This document shows, one piece after another, positions 7,089 through 64,000 of a DNA stretch of 64,000 nt. Each line of letters opens with the position of its first letter. The first letter of the stretch is position 1. The stretch spans positions 28,120-92,119 of the forward strand of contig CAZWOC010000016.1 in NCBI GenBank assembly GCA_964635655.1, read 5' to 3'. The notes beneath the pieces were generated by a model. It ran no database searches, was not told the origin of the DNA, and saw nothing but the letters and a program-made list of their open reading frames with translations. This DNA comes from an uncultured Rikenella sp. GTDB taxonomy: Bacteria > Bacteroidota > Bacteroidia > Bacteroidales > VadinHA17. The position numbers and the translations under genes were made by a program.

Positions 7089-7134
7089 GCAGGCGGTAGA
7101 CAGCAGGCAATAGGCAGCAGGCAACAGGCAGAGG
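7086..7134. repeat. Degenerate tandem heptamer array (GCARYAG-like, about 7 units) starting at the gyrB stop codon
   Basis: Read in 7-nt register: taggcag gcggtag acagcag gcaatag gcagcag gcaacag gcagagg. The short direct echoes ggcagagg and gcaatagg recur at 7188-7195 and 7207-7214. Confidence 0.7.
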
Positions 7135-10947: not shown

Positions 10948-13900
10948 TGATATTTTTTTCTGCAGTTTTTCTTCCGGCCAGGTAGCTGTAAATTGATGGC
11001 ACGACAAACAGTGTAAGGAATGTGGCGAAAAACATACCGCCGACAACTGTCACACCCATTGTGATGCGGCTTTCTGAGCCTGCACCAGTGGCAAGAACCA
11101 GCGGCATGGTGCCGAGTATTGTTGTAAGACTGGTCATGAGTATCGGGCGGAAACGGGATACTGACGCCTCGCGTACCGCATCCATGACGCTCAGTCCGGC
11201 CTGCTGCCTCTGGTTGGCAAATTCAACTATAAGTATTCCGTTCTTTGCAACCATCCCAATCAGCATTATAAGTCCTATCTCGCTGAAAATGTTGAGTGTC
11301 TGGCCAAAGATTACCATTGTTAAGAGGGCTCCGATGAGTGCGAGGGGTACTGTCACAAGGATAATTACCGGGTCACGGAAGCTCTCGAACTGGGCAGCAA
11401 GCACCAGGTAAATGAGTACCAGTGCAAGAATAAACGCAAACAGAAGGCTCGATGTGCTTTCGACAAAGTCCTGTGAGTCACCTGACAAGGCAGTGCTGAA
11501 GTTTTCGTCCAGTACCTTGTCTGCAATCCTGTCCATCTCCTCGATACCTTCACCCAGAGTATGTTTTCCCTCGAGACCTGCCGAGACTGTCGCAGCCACA
11601 AACCTGTTGTACCTGTAAAGTTGCGGCGGGAGGCTGTTTTCCCGTATTTCCACTATGTTGTCGAGCTGTATCAGCTGGCCTCTGTCATTTCTCACATAGG
11701 TACTTGTAAGATCATAGGGGTCATTTCGTTTCGACTTGTCAAACTGGCTGAAAATCTGGTACTGTTTCCCGTCGAGGATATAATATCCGATTCGTTGTTC
11801 GCTCATTGTAAGCTGCAGAGTCTGGGCTATACTCTGCACGTTGACGCCCATCATCGAGGCCTTCTCCCTGTTGATCATGACGGTGAGCTCAGGTTTTGTA
11901 AATTTCAGGTTCACGTCAGAAGCTGAGAAGTAGGGGCTTTCCGATGCGAGTGCCATGAAATCAGGGATTACCCTTTTCAGGTCATTGAGGTTCTTGGCCT
12001 GGATGACGTATTGCACCGGCAGACCCCCGCGACGCGCACCGAAGGTTTGCTGCTGTGATACTATTGTCTGTGCACCGGTGTATTGTCTCAGGACAGGGGA
12101 GAGGGCTTGAGCTATCTCCTGCTGTGAGCGTTTCCGGTCTTCCTTGTCGACCAGCCTGACCCTCATGTTTGCCGAGTTGACGCTCCCCATGCCAACCATC
12201 ATCATTATGTTGTCACTCTCGGGTACCTGTTCCTTAACCACCGGGGCAATCTGATCCATATATGATGTCATATACTCATATGTCGCCCCTTCGGTCGCCC
12301 TTGCATTGATTGTGACATAGCCGCGGTCCTCCAGAGGAGCCATCTCTGAGGGGAGGAGTGACCACATCCATGCAATAAGCCCCCCGGATACAATAATTAT
12401 TATGAACGCCAGGTACCTTTTTTCCAGGAATTTCGTAATTGCCTTACGGTAGAAATTGATCATGCCGGCAAAGAAGGGTTCAGAGAAACGGTAGAAGCGT
12501 CCTTCCATGGCGTTGTGCTTCAGCACCCTCGACGAGATCATGGGTGTGAGTGAAAGAGCCAGGAATGCCGAGATTCCGACAGCGCCAACTATCACAAGGC
12601 TGAATTCCCTGAAGAGCCTGCCGGTGACGCCCTGCAGAAACACGATGGGCAAGAATACAGATATAAGTGCAATTGTTGTCGCGATGATTGCGAAGTAGAT
12701 TTCCTTAGATCCCTTCAGTGCTGCTTCCATCGGTGTCATGCCGTGTTCCACCTTTGTGTAGATGTTTTCCACAACCACAATGGCGTCATCGACAACGAGA
12801 CCGATTGAAAGGACTATTGCAAAGAGGGTCAGGATGTTGATTGTAAAACCGGCAATATACATCACGAAGAAAGCTCCGATGAGTGCGACGGGTATTGCAA
12901 CCACCGGGATGAGAGTTGTTCTCCAGTTCCGGAGGAAGAGGAAAATTACAAGTACAACGAGCATGAAGGCGATAAATATAGTATTCTTTACCTCCTTGAT
13001 CGACTCTCTGATATAAAGTGTATTGTCAAAAAGCACCTCCATCGTAATATCTTCAGGAAGTTCCTTTTCCAGCTGTTTGAGAAGTATCTGCGCATTGTCA
13101 ACGATATCAATGTAGTTGGCTCCCGGCTGGGGTACAAGTACCACGTTTACAGATGGTTTGCCGTTACTAAGAAGGTGGGAGCGTATGTTTTCGGCATCAA
13201 TCTCTGCAACTCCGATATCGCTGAATTTAACAACCCTGTCGCCGTTTTTTGCAATTATCAGGTCATTGAACTCATCTACAGTACGAAGCCTGCCGAGGGT
13301 TCTGATTGTCAGTTCTGTATTATCGCCTTCGATTCTTCCTGAAGGCAGTTCGACGTTTTCCCTGGTTACTGCGGTTCGTACATCGAGAGGGGTGAGACCG
13401 TATGCTGCCAGCCTGGCCGGATCCATTTTCATCCTTATTGCTAGCTTCTTTGAACCCCAGACTGACACTGCACTTACGCCTGAGATAGTCTGCAGTCTTT
13501 CCTTGAAGTTGAGTTCGGCATACTGGCTGACATCAATTATTGACCTTGTGTCGCTCCTGAGTGTTACTGCGAAGATTGGCTGCGCGTCGGCGTCGGCTTT
13601 CTGAACTACCGGAGGATCAACATCCTGGGGCAGGCGGCGCATTGCTCCGGAAACCTTGTCACGGACGTCGTTCACAGCCGTTTCCATGTCAACTTCCAGT
13701 TTGAACTCAACAGTTATGCGTGATGAACCGTCACTGCTTGAACTTGAAATTGAACGAATCCCCTGAACACTGTTTATTGCCGACTCGAGGGGTTCAGTTA
13801 TCTGGGTCTCCATTACATCTGAGTTGGCACCCGGGAAAGAAGTGGATACAGTCACAACAGCCGGGTCAACGCTCGGGTAATCCCTTACGCCGAGGAAAGT

Positions 13901-18697: not shown

Positions 18698-18862
18698 TCC
18701 GTTAAAGTGAAGTTAATTATCTTAGAATGACCCCTTAAGTTTGTTAAAAATTCGAAAATTTGTAAAACATTTTGACTGTGTCATGGTTGTAAAGATATTA
18801 ATCTTTTGGGCAGGCACGCAATTTGTTGAAACAGTGGAACAGAAAACAGTACAACAATAAAC

Positions 18863-20317
18863 ATGAAAGCTATGAAAGGTAAAGGGTTGATAACTACGTT
18901 GCTGGTTGCACTTTTCGGTGCTCTGGCAGGTCTTTTCATCTACACCAGGTTTCTTGACAGGGATAAACTGGTGACCGGGAGCGACAAGGAGAATAAAATG
19001 ATCGAGGAGAATGCAAGATATACCTCGCTTGTACCGCAGTCGGGTGTTAATGATTTCACCTTTGCAGCTGAACATACTGTTCATGCAGTAGTTCACGTAA
19101 AGACCAAGGCTACAGTCAGTTCCTCGTATTCTAATCCGCTTTATGAATTTTTTTACGGTCCGGGTTCAGCCAAACCGAGGGAGGTCAGAGGCTTTGGGTC
19201 AGGTGTTATAGTGACAGGTGACGGTTACATTGTAACCAACAATCATGTTATTGATGAAGCTGATGAGGTTGAAGTTACACTGAATGACAAGCGTACTTTC
19301 CAGGCTGAGGTTGTGGGGCGTGACCCGAGCACTGATATAGCAGTCCTTAAGATCAAGGCGAAGGACCTGCCCTACATAAGGTTCGGAAACTCTGACGCCA
19401 TCCGTCTTGGAGAATGGGTGCTTGCAGTGGGCAACCCCTTTAACCTTACTTCGACTGTTACAGCAGGCATTGTCAGTGCAAAGGGAAGAAGCCTTGGCCT
19501 GCTCGACAACCAGTACAGGATCGAATCATTCATACAGACCGATGCTGCCCTTAACCAGGGCAACAGCGGCGGTGCTCTTGTGAATGTGCAGGGTGAGCTT
19601 ATAGGCATTACAACTGCAATAATATCTCCCAGCGGGGCATATGCCGGCAACTCTTTTGCAGTTCCGACGTCTATTGTAAGGAAGGTATATGAAGATATAA
19701 AGGAATTCGGAGAGGTACAGCGCGGACTGCTGGGTGTAAACATTACAGATGTGACTGAAGATCTGGCCAGGCAGGAGAATCTCAAGGAGATAAAGGGTGT
19801 CTACCTGTCGGGAGTTGTTGAAGACGGTGCAGCCAGGGCGGCTGGTCTTGCGGAGAAGGATGTAATCATCGCCATCAACGGTGAACCGGTGGAGACAACG
19901 GCAGATTTGCAGGAGAAGGTCAGCCGGTTCAGACCAGGAGACAAGCTTGAGGTAACTTATCTCAGAAAGGGAAAAGAGGATAAAAAGACAGTGGTTCTCC
20001 GCAATATTGAGGGTGGAACCGGCGTTGTAGCTCCCGGGGCAACATCCTCAACAGTGTTCGGTGCCACATTCGCGCCGCTCACTGCAGGCGAAAAAAGTCA
20101 ATATAAAATATCTGGCGGTGTAAGAATCACGTCGATTTCTGATGGCAGGTTCCGTGACCTCGGCATTTCGAGGGGAACAGTCATAATAGACGTGAACGGA
20201 GAAAAAGTTAACAGCGGATCTGATGTCCGCAAGGCAACAAATGATGAGAAAAATCTGACGTCAGTCGAAGGATTTACGCCAGACGGAACATACTTCAAAT
20301 ACCAGACAAGGAGGTAG
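18863..20317 (+). CDS. HtrA/DegQ-family periplasmic serine endoprotease with two PDZ-like regions
   Basis: Trypsin-fold triad context (TNNHVI, DIAVLKI, GNSGGALVN), followed by PDZ-type segments. An N-terminal anchor is present. Confidence 0.9.
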   Translation: MKAMKGKGLITTLLVALFGALAGLFIYTRFLDRDKLVTGSDKENKMIEENARYTSLVPQSGVNDFTFAAEHTVHAVVHVKTKATVSSSYSNPLYEFFYGPGSAKPREVRGFGSGVIVTGDGYIVTNNHVIDEADEVEVTLNDKRTFQAEVVGRDPSTDIAVLKIKAKDLPYIRFGNSDAIRLGEWVLAVGNPFNLTSTVTAGIVSAKGRSLGLLDNQYRIESFIQTDAALNQGNSGGALVNVQGELIGITTAIISPSGAYAGNSFAVPTSIVRKVYEDIKEFGEVQRGLLGVNITDVTEDLARQENLKEIKGVYLSGVVEDGAARAAGLAEKDVIIAINGEPVETTADLQEKVSRFRPGDKLEVTYLRKGKEDKKTVVLRNIEGGTGVVAPGATSSTVFGATFAPLTAGEKSQYKISGGVRITSISDGRFRDLGISRGTVIIDVNGEKVNSGSDVRKATNDEKNLTSVEGFTPDGTYFKYQTRR

Positions 20318-45203: not shown

Positions 45204-47150
45204 ATGACAGCATCTGAAGCGATTGCCCTGATGAAAGAGTCCGGGGTCACACTTCCTGAGGAGATAAGCCTTATTGCCGGAAGTTCTCCGTCCGCGGTTT
45301 TCTTCAATTCTTCGTCTGAAATCCTTGAAGCTTCGTTTCCCGGCAGGGGAGACCTGACATTCGAAGTTAAATATGACATTCCGGGAAGAGGTGAGGTCAC
45401 GGAAGTAAAGCTTCACCGTGTCACAAACGGGCTATCTGCAAACTATACAGAGCCTTACATGAGACGACGTGACCCGGAGACAATGCTCATCGGTGACGAG
45501 CGGCCGACCGACAAGAGGAGGTTTGAGGATGAATATGGTTATCCTTTTTGCAGGCTGAAGAATGAGACCATTGAATGGCTGAAAGGGCAGGAGGTCGGGA
45601 TGTTCCTCTGTTTTGCAGGCAACTGGCCAATCGGTGCCGGCGGCATTGTTGTAACCCCGCTCAACGCATCGTTTTTTGCTTTCGGGCTATCGCTCCTGCA
45701 GAGGATTATTTCTGTTGATCAGCTACCTGAAGGATTCAGGGTGGAATCTGTCGTCTACGTTGCACCTCCCTTCCGTCACACGCATTTCATGGGACGCCAG
45801 GTTGTTGTACACAACAGGCTTGAAGGTCTTCATGAGATGTTTGCCTATAACCTGTATCCGGGCCCGAGTGCCAAGAAGGGATTCTACAGTGTCCTCCTTG
45901 ACAAGGGAGAGGATGAAGGATGGCTTACAACCCACTGTTCAACGGTTCAGGTTGTGAGTCCGTATGACAACGTGACCACGTTCATGCATGAGGGGGCCAG
46001 CGGGGGAGGCAAGAGCGAGATGATACAAAACATTGTACGTGAGCCGAATGGCCAGATACTGATTGGCCAGAATATAATGACAGGTGAGCGGCGGGTCATA
46101 TCAATCCCGTTCTTCTGTTCGTTTCATCCGGCAACTGATGACATGGCGCTCTGCCACCCTTCTTACCAGAGTAACAACGGCAAGCTGACTGTAGCTGATG
46201 CCGAGAATGCATGGTTCATCAGGGTTGACGGAGTGACCGGTTACGGTGACGATCCGTTTCTTGAAAAGATCACGATCAACCCGGCAGAGCCGTTGCTCTT
46301 TCTGAATATTGACACCAGGCCTGACGGTACGGCATTGATATGGAACCACACGGAGGATTCACCCGGCAAACGGTGCCCCAATCCAAGGGTAGTGCTTCCG
46401 CGAAGGATTGTCCCGGGTGTGATCAACAGACCGGTCACCGTCGATGTCCGCAATTTCGGGGTAAGGATGCCGCCTTGTACAGCAGAGAAGCCCACTTATG
46501 GTATTGCGGGGCTTTTTCATATACTTCCCCCGGCGCTTGCATGGTTATGGCGGCTTGTGAGCCCCCGCGGATATGCCAATCCCAGCGTCACCGGCAACAG
46601 CGATCTCGAGAGTGAGGGTGCAGGGTCATACTGGCCTTTTGCAACCGGTAAAAAAGTACGGCATGCAAACCTCCTCCTGGAACAGATAGTCAATACTCCC
46701 AGAGTCAGATACACTCTGACACCAAACCAGCACATCGGGGCATGGAAGGTGGGGTTCAAGCCACAGCTGCTGATGAGGGAATACCTGACACGCCGCGGCA
46801 ACGCTAAACTCAGGGCAGATCAGCTCAAACCTTCAAGGTGTTCACTGCTTGGATATGAACTCAACTACCTCACAATCGAGGGTTCTCCTGTACCCACCCG
46901 GTTTCTCAAGGTGTACCGGCAGGCAGAGGTGGGTGAAGAGGGCTATGATGCCGGTGCCGCCATTCTCCAGGACTTTTTCCGCAGGGAGCTGGAGGGATTT
47001 CTCTCGCCTGACCTGGCCCCGCTGGGACGAAGGATAATAAATGCCTTCATGGAGGGGTGCACTGTTGAGGAGTACGCCCGGATACTTCCGATGGAATACC
47101 AGTACTCGTTTCTTACGATTAATGACCATAACCAGCAGGGGGCCGTGTGA
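45204..47150 (+). CDS. Uncharacterised 648-aa protein (DUF4914-like) with P-loop and PEP-carboxykinase-like motif order
   Basis: Uninterrupted ORF with the Walker-A-like motif HEGASGGGKSEM. The downstream motifs run in the same order as ATP-PEPCK (see findings). The family name is recalled from memory, not searched. Confidence 0.7.
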   Translation: MTASEAIALMKESGVTLPEEISLIAGSSPSAVFFNSSSEILEASFPGRGDLTFEVKYDIPGRGEVTEVKLHRVTNGLSANYTEPYMRRRDPETMLIGDERPTDKRRFEDEYGYPFCRLKNETIEWLKGQEVGMFLCFAGNWPIGAGGIVVTPLNASFFAFGLSLLQRIISVDQLPEGFRVESVVYVAPPFRHTHFMGRQVVVHNRLEGLHEMFAYNLYPGPSAKKGFYSVLLDKGEDEGWLTTHCSTVQVVSPYDNVTTFMHEGASGGGKSEMIQNIVREPNGQILIGQNIMTGERRVISIPFFCSFHPATDDMALCHPSYQSNNGKLTVADAENAWFIRVDGVTGYGDDPFLEKITINPAEPLLFLNIDTRPDGTALIWNHTEDSPGKRCPNPRVVLPRRIVPGVINRPVTVDVRNFGVRMPPCTAEKPTYGIAGLFHILPPALAWLWRLVSPRGYANPSVTGNSDLESEGAGSYWPFATGKKVRHANLLLEQIVNTPRVRYTLTPNQHIGAWKVGFKPQLLMREYLTRRGNAKLRADQLKPSRCSLLGYELNYLTIEGSPVPTRFLKVYRQAEVGEEGYDAGAAILQDFFRRELEGFLSPDLAPLGRRIINAFMEGCTVEEYARILPMEYQYSFLTINDHNQQGAV

Positions 47151-47252
47151 GCCTCCCGGTCTGATGACAGGCGCCAACAGGAGGTGGGGCATGTGAGCCC
47201 CCCGGTCTGATGACAGGCGCCAACAGGAAGGGGGGCTGTGAGCCCCCCCCCC
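47146..47252. repeat. 45-46-bp tandem repeat (2 full copies plus a partial copy) ending in a C10 homopolymer
   Basis: Copies start with tgtgagcc at 47146, 47192 and 47237. Copies 1 and 2 are identical at 37 of their first 38 positions. The C-run grows from cctccc to C6 to C10 (47243-47252). Copy 1 overlaps the last two codons and stop of the 45204..47150 gene. Confidence 0.85.
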
Positions 47253-54655: not shown

Positions 54656-54753
54656 AAACACCTATCCGGGGTGGTATAAATACCTCTTTTGACAGTGCTC
54701 TGCTTTTCAGGCAAGGTGCTTTGTTTATTTTTGGTTACCCAAAACCAATCGCC

Positions 54754-56037
54754 ATGCTTTTAGCAGTATTCCTGATAGTTTTTTATTTTACGTTTCCGCT
54801 TGTACTGATATGGATGTGCAAGAAATGGAGCATCCTTCAGAAACTGGGGACGATAGTACTTGCATACGGATTCGGACTGATCATCGGTACTGCAGGTTTC
54901 TTCCCTAAGGGCAGTGACGGGTATCGTGCAGCACTGCAGGGTCAGGCTGTAATGAGTACTGCCCGGCTTGACCAGCTGATTGCGGAAGGGAAGGCAGTTC
55001 AGAATGACCGGACTGCAAATAAGATTGCCGGGATACAGGACAAGGTCTACACTGTTTCCCTGCTTGTCGCTTTTCCGCTGCTTCTGTTTTCGCTAAACCT
55101 GAAGAGATGGCTCAAATTTGCGAAGAAGGGTTTTGTATCGATTGGTCTGGCCCTGGTGGCAGGTCTTGTAATGGTTACTGCAGGTTTCTTCATATGGAAA
55201 GACACTTTTCCTGACACATGGAAGCTGGCAGGCATGTTTGAAGGAATATATACCGGCGGAACTCCGAACTTTGCCGCCCTTAAACTAATATTGGATGTTG
55301 ATGCCGAGCGGTTTGTCGTTCTAAATACATATGACATGATCGTGGGAGCCTTCCTGGTGCTGTTCTTTGTGACCGTTGCACCACGGATATTCAGGGCTTT
55401 TCTTCCCAAATTCAAGGAAGAAAAAGGGGCGGTTGTGGATGACGAACTTGTGAAACAGGAGACAGAGGGTCTGGATGATTTTTCAGGCATGCTTGATAAA
55501 CAGCGGGCATGGCCGCTTCTGAGGGCTTTGCTGATGAGTATTATTATAGCCGGTGTCGGAGCTGCCGTCTATTTTCTTATCCCGGTTGAGATGCAGCAAT
55601 ACAGGATGGCCGGGATGGTGCTTACAATTACAACCCTAGGGATACTTGCTTCACTGTACAGGCCTATTAATCAGATAAAGAAGACATTTCAGCTGGGTAT
55701 GTACCTGATACTTGTATTCTCACTTACTGTTGCTTCGATGTCTGATCTGCGGACAATGTTTACAAAAGGAATGATGGACCTGGTTTTATTTATTTCCTGG
55801 TGTTACTTCGGATCCCTGTTCCTTCACATAATACTGGCCAAAATATTCAAGATAGACGCTGATAATTTCCTCATAACAGCCACGGCATTTATTTTCTCAC
55901 CGCCGTTTGTTCCGCTGGTCGCCAATGCGCTTAAAAACAAGGATGTGATTGTAACCGGGATAGCCGGGGGAGTCATTGGCTATACACTTGGCAACTATTT
56001 CGGCACCACTCTTGCATTTTTCCTGGAGCGGTTCTGA
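54754..56037 (+). CDS. DUF819-like polytopic membrane protein
   Basis: About 11 hydrophobic segments. The motif IYTGGTPNFAAL resembles the remembered DUF819 signature (GGS.N.AA). The ATG at 54754 is preferred over the TTG at 54721. Confidence 0.6.
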   Translation: MLLAVFLIVFYFTFPLVLIWMCKKWSILQKLGTIVLAYGFGLIIGTAGFFPKGSDGYRAALQGQAVMSTARLDQLIAEGKAVQNDRTANKIAGIQDKVYTVSLLVAFPLLLFSLNLKRWLKFAKKGFVSIGLALVAGLVMVTAGFFIWKDTFPDTWKLAGMFEGIYTGGTPNFAALKLILDVDAERFVVLNTYDMIVGAFLVLFFVTVAPRIFRAFLPKFKEEKGAVVDDELVKQETEGLDDFSGMLDKQRAWPLLRALLMSIIIAGVGAAVYFLIPVEMQQYRMAGMVLTITTLGILASLYRPINQIKKTFQLGMYLILVFSLTVASMSDLRTMFTKGMMDLVLFISWCYFGSLFLHIILAKIFKIDADNFLITATAFIFSPPFVPLVANALKNKDVIVTGIAGGVIGYTLGNYFGTTLAFFLERF

Positions 56038-56044
56038 CAGGAAA

Positions 56045-56183
56045 GGTCTGAAGGTCCAAAGGTCTAAGGTCTGAAGGTCGTGGATGGCATTAATTTACAT
56101 TACCCCTGACCTTCAGACTTTCAGACCCTCAGACCCTCAGACCTTCAGACTTTCAGACTTTCAGACTTTCAGACTTTCAGATC
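56045..56183. repeat. Inverted arrays of a tandem octamer (4 x GGTCTGAA-like, 27-nt AT-rich spacer, 9 x TTCAGACY) filling a convergent intergenic gap
   Basis: Left arm 56045-56079: ggtctgaa ggtccaaa ggtctaa ggtctgaa ggtc. Right arm 56107-56183: tgacc, then ttcagact ttcagacc ctcagacc ctcagacc ttcagact x4 ttcagatc. 56068-56079 pairs with 56108-56119 over 12 positions, one of them a G-T wobble. The array ends 1 nt from the minus-gene stop codon (56184-56186) and starts 8 nt after the plus-gene stop. Confidence 0.9.
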
Positions 56184-57527
56184 CTAAAACAGAAAGTTGA
56201 GTCCGATATAAAACTCCATGTCGCCGTCCTGTTCCTTCAGCGCCTTGCCGATGTCTGCGGAGATTATGAAGTTTTCGTTCATGACGAGCTTCAGACCGAG
56301 GCCTGCAGCCATGTGAAGTTTATCCTTACCCCCGATGTAATAATCTGCTACGTTTTCTTCACCTTCAAGATAATCTTCCAGGTCATTAACATCCACATCT
56401 ATCAGTGAGGTCACAGCGCATGCATCGAAGAAATAGTTCGTTCCCAGGTACCAGTTCTGGTTTATAAACTTAAACCGGACCATTTTCCAGCGAAGTTCTG
56501 CGTTTCCGTAAGCGAATCCGTCACCGATGACCCTGTTTCTGAGCAAACCTCTGATAGTCTTGCTGCCACCAAGGCCTTCTGAAAGGGCCCCTCTCAGCTC
56601 TGAAACGATAACCTGCCCCTGGTAGTAGAAGGGTACGTCACCGAACAGTGTTTGCTGGTATCCCAGCCTGTAGGCGAAGCTGAGATCGTTCTCCTTGAGG
56701 GTGAAATACTGTCTCCAGGTGAAATAAAATTTTCCGAATGTCGATTCTGCACCAAGGAATTCCGGTACAACCTCTATCCCTGTCTCTGCCCATATGCCGT
56801 CCATGGGGCACGCCCGCTGATCGCGGGAATCAAATGAGATGCCACCCTTTATCCCGGTAATCCAGCCTCCGTCAGCTTCGTCGGATGTCAGCAGCCCTGA
56901 ATTTTTGTAATACCCGTATAGTGTAGGTTCATCCGGATCAAGATATTTGGGATCTTCCGGATCCTTGCCCTTATTGAACTTGTCAACGTTCAGGTCTTTT
57001 ACCTTGAAGTTTTGTATGCTCAGACCGGCATTCCAGTGCCAGTTGTTTTCACCGATATTTCCGATAAAATCATTTTTAAACCGGAAAAGGTGTCTCTGCA
57101 TTGCATAGAAAAGACGACTCCTGTAGTCAGGATTCAATTCGTCATCCACCCATGCCTTATTGTAAACGGATGCAAATCCGTTAAAACCGTAGAAATCATA
57201 TGCAAAATCGGGCATATAACTCAGGTCGACAGCATACCTGATCCCCTTGATGAGGTAGTCGGAGTCATACATCACCCTGAGGATAGAGCTTCCCTTTGTG
57301 AAGGTCGAAGCTTCAACATAAATTCTATGGTAATAGTCGGGGTATATTGATCCGTCACCGTAGTCGAACAGGTTAACCAGTGCTCCGTACTGAAATCCCT
57401 GGTCAGTGCTGTAGGTGACGGCGGGCAGAGCTCCGAAGTTCCACCCTGTCTTGGTCTCCTGGGCCATCATGGATGTGGTGAGGAGTCCGGCAATCATGAT
57501 AAAAGTGAGTTTTTTCATAGGTTTCAT
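56184..57527 (-). CDS. Outer-membrane beta-barrel protein, Omp85/BamA-like surface-antigen family without POTRA (tentative)
   Basis: Signal peptide (MKPMKKLTFIMIAGLLTTSMMAQ). Alternating beta-strand pattern with the C-terminal barrel signature EFYIGLNFLF. Confidence 0.6.
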   Translation of the reverse strand: MKPMKKLTFIMIAGLLTTSMMAQETKTGWNFGALPAVTYSTDQGFQYGALVNLFDYGDGSIYPDYYHRIYVEASTFTKGSSILRVMYDSDYLIKGIRYAVDLSYMPDFAYDFYGFNGFASVYNKAWVDDELNPDYRSRLFYAMQRHLFRFKNDFIGNIGENNWHWNAGLSIQNFKVKDLNVDKFNKGKDPEDPKYLDPDEPTLYGYYKNSGLLTSDEADGGWITGIKGGISFDSRDQRACPMDGIWAETGIEVVPEFLGAESTFGKFYFTWRQYFTLKENDLSFAYRLGYQQTLFGDVPFYYQGQVIVSELRGALSEGLGGSKTIRGLLRNRVIGDGFAYGNAELRWKMVRFKFINQNWYLGTNYFFDACAVTSLIDVDVNDLEDYLEGEENVADYYIGGKDKLHMAAGLGLKLVMNENFIISADIGKALKEQDGDMEFYIGLNFLF

Positions 57528-58860: not shown

Positions 58861-59027
58861 GTTATCGGTTATCGGTTATAGGTTATCGGTTATTTAGGAA
58901 TTGACTTTGACAAACTGACAACCGGTAACCGACAACCGACAACCGATAACCGACAACCGACAACCGATAACCGACAACCGACAACCGACAACCGATAACC
59001 GACAACCGACAACCGATAACCGATAAC
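58861..59027. repeat. Inverted arrays of a tandem heptamer (5 x GTTATCG-like, 24-nt spacer, 15 x AACCGAY) filling the entire hutI-ftcD spacer
   Basis: Left arm 58861-58895: gttatcg gttatcg gttatag gttatcg gttattt. Spacer 58896-58919. Right arm 58920-59024: aaccggt, then aaccgac/aaccgat units with a 21-nt gac-gac-gat super-period. 58861-58877 is perfectly complementary to 59011-59027 (17 nt). Confidence 0.92.
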
Positions 59028-60725: not shown

Positions 60726-60960
60726 TCTGGTTAAAGATCATAAAATCAGAGCCATAGGACTTTTTTTATCTCCTGCTTGCCAGGGCATTTAGGTGTGCCG
60801 GAGGGTCATTTCGTTGCCCTTTCTCAGGCATAATGCCCGTTTCCGGGATGTATTGCACAGCATGATTTTTTAGTGTTAAGTATTGCTTATAAGGAAATAA
60901 TGCTTATTTTGCACTTGTGAGTGATTCACAATAACCCTTATTAACCTAAACTATTAATGT

Positions 60961-63900
60961 ATGAAAAAGATCCTAATGTTTTTTGTACTGGCATTTGTCA
61001 CTGCAGCTTTTGCGCTTGGACAGACAGTACAGATTTCGGGTACTGTAACAAGCCAGGAAGATGGCCTTCCGATACCCGGAGTTTCGGTAACAGTTAAGGG
61101 CACTACAGTCGGAGTCCTGACAGGAGCCAAAGGTGATTATGTCATCTCTGCCCCCCAGGGAGCCAGAACTCTTGTCTTCAGCTTCATCGGGATGAAGAAG
61201 CAGGAAGAGGAGATTGCCGGCAGAACAAGGATTGATGTTGTCCTTGCCCCTGACCTTGTAGGTCTTGATGAGATCGTCGTTACGGCGATGGGTGTGTCAC
61301 GTGAGAAGAAATCACTTGGATATGCTGTTCAGGAGATCAACACATCTGACATAGCCCGTGCAGGTAACCCTGATATAGGTACCAACCTGTCAGGAAAGAT
61401 CGCCGGTGTGGAAGTCAGACAATCTTCAGGGATGCCCGGAGCTCCTGCATTGGTGCTCATCAGAGGTGCACGCTCATTCAGCGGCAATAACCAGCCTCTT
61501 TATGTGGTTGACGGTATGCCTATCGCCAGTGGCTCCGATTACAGCCAGGGTGTTACTGGTTCATACTCTTCAGCCAGGTCACTTGACCTTGACCCCAACA
61601 ACATTGAATCAATCAACGTTCTGAAAGGTCAGGCAGCAGCTGCCCTGTACGGGATGCGTGCATCAAACGGCGTAATTGTCATTACGACAAAATCAGGTGC
61701 TGCAGCAGCCAAAGGGATTCCAACTGTAAGCCTGACATCATCCTATACATCAGACCAGGTTGCAGTTCTTCCTGAGGTGCAGCAGACATGGGCACAGGGA
61801 TATTACAGGGGAGCTACCACCGATGAGTCTGACCTGCGTTTTTATGCAGCCAACTCCTACTCATGGGGCCCCAGACTGTCAAAACTGCCTGATGATCCGA
61901 ACTACGGAGGAAACACCAGGGAGCACCCCGGACAGTGGTTCGATCCTTACAAGAACGCATGGGTAACTCCGCAGGCTTTTAACAATCCGGCCAACTTCTA
62001 TCAGAAAGGTGGTACATGGTATAACGGTATCAGCATTAGCAATTCACTTGGTGCTGCCAACTATCTGATCGGACTCAGTTCCACTGATCAGAATGCAATT
62101 GTCAAGAACTCGGGAATGAAGAGATATACTGCAAACATATCGGCTTCAACAGCACTCGGAGACAAGTGGAAAGCAGGCTTCACAGGCAATTATACGGATG
62201 TGTCTCTTCAGAAGCTTCCTTCAGGAAATGACAGCTGGCTATTCACAGTGGTGGGTGCACCTGCTTCATATGACCTGATGGGTACACCATATCATCAGGA
62301 GGGGGCTCTCGGGGAATACCGCCAGATCAGCTACCGCAGAGGCACAGTGGGAGAGAACCCGCTCTGGGCACTGGAAAACAATAAGTTCCTGGAGCAGACA
62401 AGACGTTTCTTCGGAAATACTTACCTGGAATACAATCCTGTAGCATGGCTTAATGTCAGGTACCAGTTCGGTGTTGACTCATATACGACAGATAACGAGA
62501 ACGTATATGAAAAGGGTAGTACAGCTGCTGGACAGGGATTGCCCACAGCTACACAATATCCGACTCCTTCCAACCCGGTATTTGCTTATGTGGCACCGGT
62601 TGGCGGGTCAATCAACAACTACGGTGTGATGCGTTCTGCCATCAACTCCCTGTTGAATGTAACCTTCAACAAGGATCTTACAGAAGATCTTAACCTCCTT
62701 GTTATTGTCGGTAACGAGTTCAATGATTCAAGAAGCAGGTCCTGGACAATGACCGGTACCGGTTTTGTCACCCCCGGATGGCAGAATATGTCCAATACCA
62801 CAACCCAGACTGCTGATGAGGGCAAAAGCCGTGGAAGATCAGTTGGTACATACGGTAACGTGGCCCTTTCATTCAGAAGCATGATTTATCTGAACGCAAC
62901 AGGAAGGTATGACATCGTTTCAAGCATGCCAAGGGGTGCACGGTCATTCTTCTACCCGTCAGCTTCTTTAGGCTTTGTCTTTACAGAACTGCCGGGCCTG
63001 AAGGATAACAAGGTACTTCCTTACGGTAAGATCCGCGGTTCATTTGCACAGGTAGGACAGGCAGGTTCATATAACGAAAAGATATATTATATGGGCGGTG
63101 CCGGAAGCGGTTTCCTCAGTGACGGTATCAGCTATCCGCTCGGCGGTGTCAGCGGTTTCAGACCTGACGCAACTCTCTATGACCCGGATCTGAAACCACA
63201 GAACACATCTAACTGGGAACTTGGTCTTGAACTTAAATTCTTTGACAACAGGGTAGGTCTCGACTATACTTATTCAGACCAGACTGCCACAGATCAGATA
63301 TTCTCTGTTCCAATGGCCGGATCAACAGGGTACGGTTCATTCGTGACAAACGCCGGAGAGATGACATCGAAGGCTCATGAGTTGATATTCTACTTCTCGC
63401 CTGTCAGAACCAATGACTTCGAGTGGAATGTAAATATGAACTTTACAAAGATCAGGAATGAGGTTGTCTCTCTTGCCGAAGGAATTGAAAGCGTATCCCT
63501 GGTTGGTTTCACAACACCCAACGTAAGGGCATATGCCGGTTACACTTACCCGACAATTTACGGTGAGACGATGGCCAGGGATGAAGATGGGAATATCCTT
63601 ATCGATGATGATCCTGAAAGTTATTACTATGGTATGCCCATGTCAGGTGGTTCAGGCAAGATCGGAGACGTTTCTCCTGACTTTACAATGGGTCTGACCA
63701 ATACCCTGACCTATAAATGGATTTCACTCAGTGCTCAGTTCTACTGGAAACAGGGAGGCGACATTTACTCTGGTACCAACCGTCTGATGAACCTTTACGG
63801 TTCTTCAAAGGCAACAGAGGATCGCACTTCCACCTGGCAGTATAAGGACATGCTCAATGCCAAGGGTGTAGGCGTCAAGGCTACAAGCGGTGCAGTTAAT

Positions 63901-64000
63901 GATATCACCCGCGGCGGTCCCAATGATATCTGGGCTTACGCTGACTTCTTCAATGATATAATGGGTACCATCGATGAGATGAACGTATACGAGAACTCAT
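60961..64000 (+). CDS. SusC/RagA-family TonB-linked outer-membrane protein (3' end beyond the window)
   Basis: Hand translation from the ATG at 60961 stays open to the window edge, and the ORF track lists no long ORF in any frame across this stretch. Signal peptide MKKILMFFVLAFVTAAFALGQ. CarboxypepD_reg segment ISGTVTSQEDGLPIPGVSVTVKGTT. TonB-box-like DEIVVTAMG. Plug PLYVVDGMP...IESINVLKGQAAAALYGMRASNGVIVITTK. Confidence 0.9.
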   Translation, partial: MKKILMFFVLAFVTAAFALGQTVQISGTVTSQEDGLPIPGVSVTVKGTTVGVLTGAKGDYVISAPQGARTLVFSFIGMKKQEEEIAGRTRIDVVLAPDLVGLDEIVVTAMGVSREKKSLGYAVQEINTSDIARAGNPDIGTNLSGKIAGVEVRQSSGMPGAPALVLIRGARSFSGNNQPLYVVDGMPIASGSDYSQGVTGSYSSARSLDLDPNNIESINVLKGQAAAALYGMRASNGVIVITTKSGAAAAKGIPTVSLTSSYTSDQVAVLPEVQQTWAQGYYRGATTDESDLRFYAANSYSWGPRLSKLPDDPNYGGNTREHPGQWFDPYKNAWVTPQAFNNPANFYQKGGTWYNGISISNSLGAANYLIGLSSTDQNAIVKNSGMKRYTANISASTALGDKWKAGFTGNYTDVSLQKLPSGNDSWLFTVVGAPASYDLMGTPYHQEGALGEYRQISYRRGTVGENPLWALENNKFLEQTRRFFGNTYLEYNPVAWLNVRYQFGVDSYTTDNENVYEKGSTAAGQGLPTATQYPTPSNPVFAYVAPVGGSINNYGVMRSAINSLLNVTFNKDLTEDLNLLVIVGNEFNDSRSRSWTMTGTGFVTPGWQNMSNTTTQTADEGKSRGRSVGTYGNVALSFRSMIYLNATGRYDIVSSMPRGARSFFYPSASLGFVFTELPGLKDNKVLPYGKIRGSFAQVGQAGSYNEKIYYMGGAGSGFLSDGISYPLGGVSGFRPDATLYDPDLKPQNTSNWELGLELKFFDNRVGLDYTYSDQTATDQIFSVPMAGSTGYGSFVTNAGEMTSKAHELIFYFSPVRTNDFEWNVNMNFTKIRNEVVSLAEGIESVSLVGFTTPNVRAYAGYTYPTIYGETMARDEDGNILIDDDPESYYYGMPMSGGSGKIGDVSPDFTMGLTNTLTYKWISLSAQFYWKQGGDIYSGTNRLMNLYGSSKATEDRTSTWQYKDMLNAKGVGVKATSGAVNDITRGGPNDIWAYADFFNDIMGTIDEMNVYENS

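Follow-up and report, generated by a model that had tools for sequence, protein, structure and literature searches.

The 64,000-nucleotide stretch of DNA analysed here (hereafter, the window), which was assembled from an uncultured Rikenella sp., contains a site where two convergent genes, one for a DUF819-family membrane protein and the other for an Omp85-superfamily outer-membrane protein, end with their stop codons 146 nt apart, the gap between them being filled by two mirror arrays of a short repeat unit. This locus belongs to a class of intergenic tandem arrays with units of 7-8 nt that change rapidly and occur throughout the lineage, and that are comparable in general kind to the short tandemly repeated repetitive sequences of cyanobacteria and to the long simple-sequence repeats of prokaryotes. 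Both the presence of the arrays and their hairpin potential are kept at the convergent gap, with coordinated substitutions keeping the two arms matched. The hairpin is interpreted here, with a probability of about one half, as a putative bidirectional 3'-end element that lacks a U-tract.

The locus and its orthologues constitute a natural experiment, since they combine a fixed site, swappable units, a canonical terminator in place of the arrays in one lineage and an orientation linked to gene ends. Two testable claims are offered by this material, namely that mirror arrays are bidirectional 3'-end hairpins and that the orientation of an array decides whether the RNA is folded or open.

Structure and folding of the mirror arrays

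The coordinates of the locus and of the other arrays discussed below are collected in Table 1. The units of the short arm follow one another in the order GGTCTGAA GGTCCAAA GGTCTAA GGTCTGAA GGTC, one of them being a 7-nt variant, and Tandem Repeats Finder (TRF) delimited this arm at 56043-56079 with a period of 8 and 4.8 copies. The long arm is composed of GACCTTCA, GACTTTCA, two copies of GACCCTCA, GACCTTCA, four copies of GACTTTCA and a final GATC, and was placed by TRF at 56108-56181 (period 8, 9.2 copies, 92% matches), the scores of the two arms being 53 and 106. On the plus strand the long arm is the C-rich complement (GACYYTCA), and on the minus strand it reads (RGTCTGAA)9, starting right after the Omp85 stop codon.

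An inverted octamer array at this position had been described in an earlier note on the same DNA, and that observation is borne out by the sequence itself, by TRF, by an inverted-repeat search and by the folds, with several corrections of detail. The short arm does adjoin the DUF819 stop codon, but at a distance of 7 nt (CAGGAAA) rather than 8; the spacer is A+T-rich (61%), but 28 rather than 27 nt long; and the nine-unit complementary long arm with its partial unit abuts the CTA triplet directly, although a separation of 1 nt had been given. The two gene identities proposed at that time, DUF819-like and Omp85-like, agree with the Pfam matches to PF05684 and PF01103.

Innermost pairing of the arms around the 28-nt loop was recovered by the inverted-repeat search as 14 nt with 93% complementarity, and the multiple slipped registers that had been expected were found as well, in the form of nine further registers, the longest of 27 nt. 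Folded as RNA, the gap reaches -63.6 kcal/mol on the plus strand (z = -5.1) and -78.1 kcal/mol on the minus strand (z = -7.5), and on either strand none of 200 shuffles folds as well, so a stable stem-loop of the sort that characterizes terminators is present just past the stop codons on both strands. The two DNA folds of the gap amount to -26.7 and -30 kcal/mol; the best DNA structure accounts for a fraction of just 0.0002 of the ensemble, which indicates that many slipped registers are in competition.

Repeat scans of the 64-kb window revealed a single locus of the GGTCTGAA type, and long arrays were detected by a scan written for this analysis only in the Omp85 gap and at a sister locus between hutI and ftcD, while TRF, the array scan and sequence context together place array systems at four sites of the window. 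In the close clade, 135 real arrays of period 7 or 8 (106 of period 7 and 29 of period 8) were counted as compared with 0 in mononucleotide shuffles of all sequence analysed.

The arrays are real, and short-read assemblies break at them. An independent Logan assembly (SRR8925806, contig L080, 2.7 kb) carries an identical Omp85 protein with identical flanks and first repeat units, and this contig breaks off inside both the Omp85-gap array and the hutI-ftcD array; it was also the one other contig returned by an exact look-up of the Omp85 protein, while in a metagenome scan with that protein no match to the window exceeded 94% protein identity. The suspicion that the arrays were made or inflated by assemblers is nourished by contigs that end inside them (L080 at both ends, L015 and L086), but it is extremely improbable, given that the same arrangement is seen in dozens of independent assembled genomes and in metagenome assemblies from different studies, and that the independent assembly of the same strain has identical flanks and first units. 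Because short-read contigs often end within arrays, exact long-arm copy numbers are uncertain, and the length given here for the long arm should be read with some caution. In practical terms, such arrays interrupt short-read assemblies at gene ends and risk being taken for errors.

The same convergent gap in relatives

Relatives were collected from species-representative genomes and from metagenomes scanned with the Omp85 protein, yielding about 60 loci at 66-94% identity, all from uncultured Bacteroidales, many of them labelled Rikenella or Rikenellaceae; individual loci are denoted below by L numbers. The habitats of origin are anaerobic digesters and sediments, the SRR8925806 community being an example. 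Tandem arrays with 7-8-nt units occupy the convergent gap in 37 of 44 non-redundant relatives and are mostly flush with both stop codons. The usual state comprises about 4 units, a spacer of 10 to about 50 nt and about 4 complementary units, with copy numbers that range across the relatives from 3 to more than 30. The coincidence of replication slippage for which the earlier note had allowed, in the event that relatives carried nothing similar, is contradicted by these comparable, length-varying structures in the same gap. A short arm facing a 2-3-fold longer one, which had been regarded as a shared design, does not generalize, since the usual arrangement is 4 + 4 units and the longer arm lies on one side in 16 loci and on the other in 14, as in a coin toss, for which reason a conserved arm asymmetry was rejected. 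Large expansions were seen exclusively in the arm next to the Omp85 gene, the cases being few and mutually related.

The arms of a given locus match each other. Complementarity between arrays, counted when at least 10 of 14 positions pair, was found in 30 of 31 convergent-gap loci with two or more arrays, and duplexes between the arms of one locus average -47 kcal/mol, compared with -31 kcal/mol for arms paired across loci. The repeat unit itself varies by species at the fixed site (Table 1). In L005 the gap holds a lone 7-bp hairpin from a single AGTCTGA unit, and in L031 a canonical bidirectional intrinsic terminator of the form A8-stem-T5 stands in the same place. Across these states of the gap, the thing kept at the site is a hairpin rather than a sequence. 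Slippage that enlarged an originally simple hairpin, as had been proposed, would be compatible with the L005 state. In L021 and L022 the two stop codons overlap, and the gap length is nil.

The array on the DUF819 side of L002, which in Omp85 orientation reads (TTCAGACC)x4.9, is orthologous to the short arm in the window. The DUF819 gene of the window is 98.6% identical to the copy in L002 and 43-46% identical to the DUF819 gene at that position in most relatives; these identities suggest that a distant paralogue took the place of the array-adjacent gene. Among more distant Omp85 homologues, L046 (39% identity) has post-stop (GCAGTTT)x8.9 with (AACTGAC)x6.6 at 11237-11350, and L043 (47% identity) has post-stop (TAGGCAG)x3.4 with (CTATTGC)x5.9 at 11374-11488; heptamer arrays are common in the distant Bacteroidales loci, with 57 period-7 arrays in 1 Mb as compared with 2 in shuffles.

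The hutI-ftcD gap and the shared pool of units

The hutI-ftcD gap of relatives is likewise filled with arrays, whose units belong to a pool common to the Omp85 gap. Typically, (TAGGCAG)n follows the hutI stop codon and (AAATCGC)n precedes the ftcD start codon, the two being usually non-complementary. Inter-array complementarity by the same measure was found in 5 of 11 loci at this co-directional gap, as opposed to the 30 of 31 at the convergent one, so that the inverted arrangement, which the earlier note had taken as general, is here the exception rather than the rule. The two strands of the convergent gap have median fold energies of -0.42 and -0.37 kcal/mol per nt, as compared with -0.15 for the sense strand of the hutI-ftcD gap (Mann-Whitney p = 2e-12, uncorrected for shared ancestry), and 47% of bases are in long-range pairs in the former as compared with 23% in the latter. 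Hairpin potential is specific to the convergent gap.

The two loci of the window had further been described as independent arrays with unrelated, non-dispersed units, a view that finds no support once other species are considered, as both loci draw their units from one pool. The Omp85 gap of L027 holds the GTTATCG/AACCGAC units of the window's hutI-ftcD locus, the hutI-ftcD gap of L007, L010, L012 and L034 holds arrays of the TTCAGACC type, and a (TAGGCAR)n-TAGTGTTGACAATGAT module is present at both gaps, at the Omp85 gap in both orientations. In the window, the long hutI-ftcD array ends 3 nt upstream of the ftcD ATG and has a period-21 superstructure at 95%. The idea of one single-mutation network of heptamer families was considered and not used, as single linkage joins 89 arrays and about 40 units would allow this by chance.

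Several further observations concern the hutI-ftcD region. In L009 and L010 the hutI reading frame enters the (TAGGCAG)n array and terminates at a TAG within it; owing to its 7-nt period, any reading frame that enters this array meets a stop codon within three units. The idea that arrays supply TAG stop codons was considered, as 59 of 74 array-abutting genes end in TAG compared with 9 of 39 genes of the window, and the tally was set aside because two orthologous genes dominate it. L105 and L087, whose Omp85 genes are 99.9% identical, differ in the hutI-ftcD gap by a duplication of about 110 nt that comprises a hairpin module (AAAGCTCGTAGAGCTTCAAGAATTGTA...). HutP binding sites in Bacillus have the spacing (UAG-N4)3, which is matched by (UAGGCAG)n after hutI. 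A HutP-type antiterminator was nevertheless rejected, as these arrays are found after gyrB and the Omp85 gene too, and families devoid of UAG substitute for them; no search for HutP itself was made.

Array orientation relative to gene ends

The orientation of arrays in this clade follows gene ends. In the hutI-ftcD gap, arrays that precede the start codon have more C than G on the sense strand in all 12 cases, whereas those that follow the stop codon have more G than C in 9 of 11 (Fisher p = 7e-5). Self-folding energies, in kcal/mol per nt, show the same division: pre-start arrays give -0.028 (sense) and -0.113 (antisense), post-stop arrays -0.093 (sense) and -0.029 (antisense). The G/U-rich orientation self-folds and the C/A-rich one does not because RNA permits G-U pairs. 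Four further independent loci obey the rule (Table 1), including the array at the end of gyrB, for which no clear complementary arm was seen at 7089-7131. In a convergent gap each of the two genes reads into the G/U-rich arm and then into its complement, which places a hairpin on both transcripts.

Table 1. Arrays, flanking genes and repeat units at the Omp85 locus, in the window and in related loci
Feature	Location	Strand	Basis and remarks
DUF819-family membrane protein gene	54721..56037	+	TGA stop 56035-56037; open reading frame (ORF) list; Pfam PF05684, E = 3e-27
Linker CAGGAAA, 7 nt, stop codon to first repeat unit	56038..56044	.	sequence
Short arm, ~4.4 units, G/U-rich form	56045..56079	+	sequence; TRF
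Spacer/loop GTGGATGGCATTAATTTACATTACCCCT, 28 nt, 61% A+T	56080..56107	.	sequence; loop of innermost pairing
Long arm, 9.5 units (9 full + GATC)	56108..56183	+	sequence; TRF
Omp85-superfamily outer-membrane protein gene	56184..57527	-	stop TAG (CTA, 56184-56186) abuts long arm; ORF list; Pfam PF01103, E = 5e-16
hutI-ftcD array pair	58861..59027	+	(GTTATCG)x4.7 flush with hutI stop, spacer, (AACCGAC/AACCGAT)x16.4
Degenerate TAGGCAG-type array, ~6 units	7089..7131	+	starts with gyrB TAG stop; TRF, gyrB Pfam; follows orientation rule
A/C-rich (AAACAGTA)x4.2 array	18829..18861	+	ends 1 nt before ATG at 18863; TRF; follows orientation rule
(CAGACCTT)4 array	L011		ends 4 nt before a start codon; follows orientation rule
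Mirror array pair in second convergent gap	L015		follows orientation rule
GGTCTGAA-type units	convergent gap		window, L001, L008, L010, L018, L020
TAGGCAR units	convergent gap		L004, L006, L009, L011, L012, L014, L099, L106
AGTCGGC units	convergent gap		L013, L023-L025, L030, L035
GTTATCG/AACCGAC units	convergent gap		L027; unit of the window's hutI-ftcD locus
GCGGTCWY units	convergent gap		L002
ATTTGCG units	convergent gap		L015
Hairpin insertion GGCCACC...GGTGGCTAAAAGC	L014 8560-8632; L024 8230-8344, 11440-11510; L025 6830-6918		

How the arrays change

Changes within the arms can be followed in pairs of near-identical strains. The loci L008 and L104, whose Omp85 genes are 99.3% identical, have long arms of 19.2 and 16.2 units and short arms of 3.9 and 4.9 units, respectively, with unit variants reshuffled, and slippage is the simplest explanation of the change in copy number. 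L001 and L098 show 8 differences over 6554 aligned positions, two of which sit 2 nt apart in one arm; with these two substitutions the L098 arm is complementary to the other arm over 22 nt without a mismatch, an irregular 7-nt unit being mirrored in both. Copying from arm to arm, through template switching or conversion, is a better explanation of this than point mutations that arose independently. One small element thus provides, in its strain pairs, both slippage-like copy-number change and a paired substitution that fits arm-to-arm copying.

Whole alleles are also exchanged. A complete switch to another unit family was observed at 95-97% flanking-gene identity in L027, L099 and L045, and between L086 and L106. 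The TAGGCAR allele, by comparison, is stable, six species sharing a gap of 105-106 nt and a stem of about 30 bp. Compensatory change within this stem was examined as a source of evidence, and the variable pairs were too few for anything to be concluded.

Two other kinds of rearrangement accompany these arrays. In L099 and L084 the spacer between the TAGGCAR arms is flipped with respect to other species, either by inversion between the inverted arms or by insertion of the module in the opposite orientation. A small hairpin insertion, GGCCACC...GGTGGCTAAAAGC, which exists in a short and a long form, lies within heptamer arrays, between units, at two loci and in three species; it resembles the small dispersed repeats that reportedly occur in Nostoc heptamer arrays.

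Proposed function and alternative explanations

In the mechanism proposed here, either transcript would carry the G/U-rich arm right after its stop codon, followed by the C/A-rich complement, and would fold into a long, imperfect, multi-register hairpin. This hairpin may act as a barrier against read-through antisense to the facing gene, as a block to 3'-exonucleases, or as both, and the five surplus long-arm units of the DUF819 transcript, being C-rich, G-poor and presumably unpaired, could provide a Rho loading site. Replication slippage would add units to each arm or remove them, mirror symmetry would be preserved by copying from one arm to the other (through template switching on the folded hairpin or through gene conversion), and whole alleles would occasionally be swapped for another unit family from the shared pool. 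Selection would act on the RNA, retaining the foldable orientation after stop codons and the unfoldable one before start codons, where bacteria poor in Shine-Dalgarno sequences would need an open leader.

The bidirectional terminator that the earlier note had suggested gains indirect support from a hairpin potential specific to the convergent gap, from the nearly universal complementarity of the arms there and from the L031 terminator at the same gap, but its form would be non-canonical. Several points weigh against the 3'-end reading. No U-tract or A-tract was found on either strand, the flanks being CAGGAAA and CTAAAAC, and a terminator scan gave no site at the array, so that the candidate of a canonical terminator was rejected there; other places in the window do have canonical terminators that combine a GC stem with a T-tract, and termination at the array would therefore need to be non-canonical. 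The gapless loci L021 and L022 indicate that the element is dispensable. The distant Bacteroidales loci do not show the orientation rule, and the statistics, uncorrected for shared ancestry, come mostly from two gaps. In the TAGGCAR stem the cores are invariant and compensatory change is almost absent, and such invariance would equally result from continuous homogenisation of the repeats. The proposed function accounts neither for the use of arrays instead of a plain hairpin nor for the recurring pool of units.

A rival explanation is that the arrays are a functionless by-product, in which a seed repeat or short terminator-like hairpin at a site tolerant of insertions was expanded by slippage and mirrored by hairpin-templated synthesis, and which would persist through being harmless and quick to mutate. 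The copy-number variation between near-identical strains, the complete allele replacement at 95-97% flanking-gene identity, the absence of any gap in L021 and L022 and the near absence of compensatory change all fit such an origin, as does the circumstance that the arrays constitute the entire gap, which makes edges flush with the ORFs trivial; heptamers, moreover, are the commonest long simple-sequence repeat (LSSR) in many bacteria according to the work of Mrazek 2007 as quoted in PMC4679880. This explanation is nonetheless considered unlikely, because arrays persist in both gaps over 66-94% protein identity (47% in L043) when most neighbouring gaps have none, because the TAGGCAR allele keeps its length and its stem of about 30 bp in six species, and because complementarity tracks gene arrangement (30/31 convergent as opposed to 5/11 co-directional). 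The orientation, too, follows gene ends, and a purely mutational DNA process should not tell stop codons from start codons.

Two further readings, each improbable on the present evidence, place the significance of the arrays in the DNA. The arrays might be paired sites for a nucleoid-associated or regulatory protein, with opposite-strand arrays binding a pair of oligomers, as was suggested for putative IHF/HU sites in Geobacter metallireducens, the closest architectural precedent (PMC2700814); the invariant unit cores and the limited pool of units recurring across loci and species would agree with this. However, at least six unrelated-looking unit families interchange at the site and would need as many proteins, or none, copy number spans 3 to more than 30, the stop- and start-linked orientation together with strand-specific foldability points to RNA, and the Geobacter proposal itself was never tested. 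Alternatively, a small mobile or recombining element similar to a miniature inverted-repeat transposable element (MITE) or to a hairpin formed by paired repetitive extragenic palindromes (REPIN) could have array arms, in which case the hairpin would belong to the element and not to the host genes. The (TAGGCAR)n-TAGTGTTGACAATGAT module at both gaps, flipped at the Omp85 gap in L099 and L084, the wholesale replacement of alleles between close relatives, the separate GGCCACC...GGTGGCTAAAAGC hairpin insertion inside arrays at two loci in three species, and the replacement of the flanking DUF819 gene itself are in line with mobility. Against it stand the boundaries, which coincide with stop codons, no target-site duplications or fixed ends having been seen; the occurrence of one GGTCTGAA-type locus only in the window; the fact that no transposase was identified, though no systematic search was made; and the orientation rule, which mobility alone leaves unexplained.

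Beyond the single locus, the bidirectional 3'-end reading could be extended to a broader and improbable proposal, according to which the arrays of Shine-Dalgarno-poor Bacteroidales would be modules that determine RNA structure, one and the same unit folding on itself where it is G/U-rich on the transcript, after stop codons, and staying open where it is C/A-rich, before start codons, with mirror pairs serving as tunable terminators. If this were true, a dedicated RNA protein that binds the arrays, or an enzyme that writes or copies them, would explain the shared pool, and such a factor would also explain the allele replacement and the recurrence of CAACTGA/TTGTCAG in cyanobacteria and Beggiatoaceae.

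Comparison with known repeat systems

Arrays of heptamers and octamers, including the short tandemly repeated repetitive (STRR) sequences of cyanobacteria, the TAACTGA repeats and the Geobacter pairs, have been known since the 1990s, and we know of no accepted function for them. Bidirectional intrinsic terminators occur at convergent genes, and in enterobacteria the hairpins of repetitive extragenic palindromic (REP) sequences and bacterial interspersed mosaic elements (BIMEs) protect the 3' ends of mRNA; REP units are imperfect palindromes of about 20-40 nt, form inverted doublets, are dispersed in hundreds of copies and have an associated RAYT transposase. The present locus resembles bidirectional intrinsic terminators in that a hairpin lies just past both convergent stop codons and forms on either transcript, L031 having a canonical one at the same site, and differs from them in having no U-tract or A-tract and in a stem of tandem units with many registers. 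Unlike REP, BIME and REPIN sequences, the units here are non-palindromic and 7-8 nt long, and the arms are tandem arrays. Phase-variable contingency repeats, which lie within an ORF or between promoter elements and switch expression through their copy number, differ as well, since the window locus lies wholly between two stop codons, although there is partial contact in that the hutI ORF of some relatives enters the TAGGCAG array and uses its TAG as a stop.

STRR sequences are hairpin-forming 7-bp tandem repeats with characteristic units, dispersed in many copies over the genomes of heterocyst-forming cyanobacteria and found for example between hupS and hupL, and their function is unknown, with roles in transcript stability, translational coupling and termination having been proposed (PMC2670836). 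The intergenic repeats of Nostoc include (TTGTCAG)n and (ATTGCGA)n (PMC2408588), and experiments on the heptamer repeats of this genus remain inconclusive (bioRxiv 10.1101/2022.06.06.494920). The window locus resembles them as a set of short tandem intergenic units near gene ends that can form a hairpin (fold z of -5.1 and -7.5), and at other loci and in other species of the clade the likeness extends to sequence, as Nostoc (TTGTCAG)n equals the (GTTGTCA)n of L027 and ATTGCGA is one base from TTTGCGA, that is, from the ATTTGCG unit. The differences are that the host belongs to the Bacteroidales, in another phylum; that GGTCTGAA is not an STRR unit; that the unit in the window has 8 nt with one 7-nt variant, although period 7 dominates across the clade (106 vs 29); and that the arms are separate mirror arrays filling the gap between two stop codons.

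Direct repeats of TAACTGA have been described a few nucleotides before start codons in Beggiatoaceae, cyanobacteria and five Bacteroidetes (MacGregor 2015, PMC4679880), where they have a fixed orientation, form long arrays mixed with other heptamers in some Bacteroidetes and include one reported inverted case (PMC4679880). The hutI-ftcD units CAACCGA/TAACCGA are one base off this motif in an array that ends 3 nt before the ftcD ATG, a pre-start position is found also at 18829-18861, and in the comparison of hutI-ftcD gaps L001 and L027 hold TAACTGA/CAACTGA itself. The Omp85 locus, in contrast, has the unit GGTCTGAA/TTCAGACY in an inverted pair between two stop codons, with no start codon.

In Geobacter metallireducens, 53 pairs (24 + 21 + 8 in classes 1-3) of 3-5 tandem repeats of 7-9 nt are intergenic, lie on opposite strands with variable spacing and were annotated, without test, as global-regulator (putative IHF/HU) sites (PMC2700814). 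These pairs are the closest precedent for the mirror-array architecture, the likeness lying in paired opposite-strand arrays with variable spacing, here 4.4 + 9.5 units around a 28-nt spacer and in relatives 4 + 4 units. They differ in that one consensus per class occurs at 8-24 places per genome, whereas here the unit changes between species and the site is fixed, and in that they were read as protein-binding DNA, whereas the evidence here points to RNA. The LSSR class, defined in Mrazek 2007, as reported in PMC4679880, as prokaryotic tandem repeats with units of 5-11 nt that reach far beyond chance length and in which heptamers are dominant, is loose enough to include the present arrays (TRF scores of 53 and 106; no period-7/8 arrays in close-clade shuffles), but it is descriptive and says nothing of mirror pairing or of a connection with gene ends. 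As the locus departs from STRR and TAACTGA repeats in sequence and taxon and has no U-tract, while agreeing with LSSRs and with the Geobacter architecture, it is best placed as a variant of a known, unexplained kind. What is new is the fixed site with interchangeable units, at which one lineage has a canonical terminator instead, together with the orientation rule and the differences between strains in both arms.

Other features of the window

A search with Rfam at gathering thresholds returned one tRNA only in the window. The 3.3 kb downstream of ftcD, at 60726-64000, contain no ORF of at least 90 aa and no Rfam match, and show 65-72% nucleotide identity to the DNA downstream of ftcD in relatives; in the two relatives checked, that DNA is located among called ORFs. 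This segment may be a decayed gene or a poorly assembled stretch. In another convergent gap of the window, between a DUF4914 gene and an aminotransferase gene, a 46-nt unit is repeated 2.5 times at 47137-47248, each copy having a G6/C6 hairpin (AGGGGGGC...GCCCCCC), and this gap folds at -86 kcal/mol.

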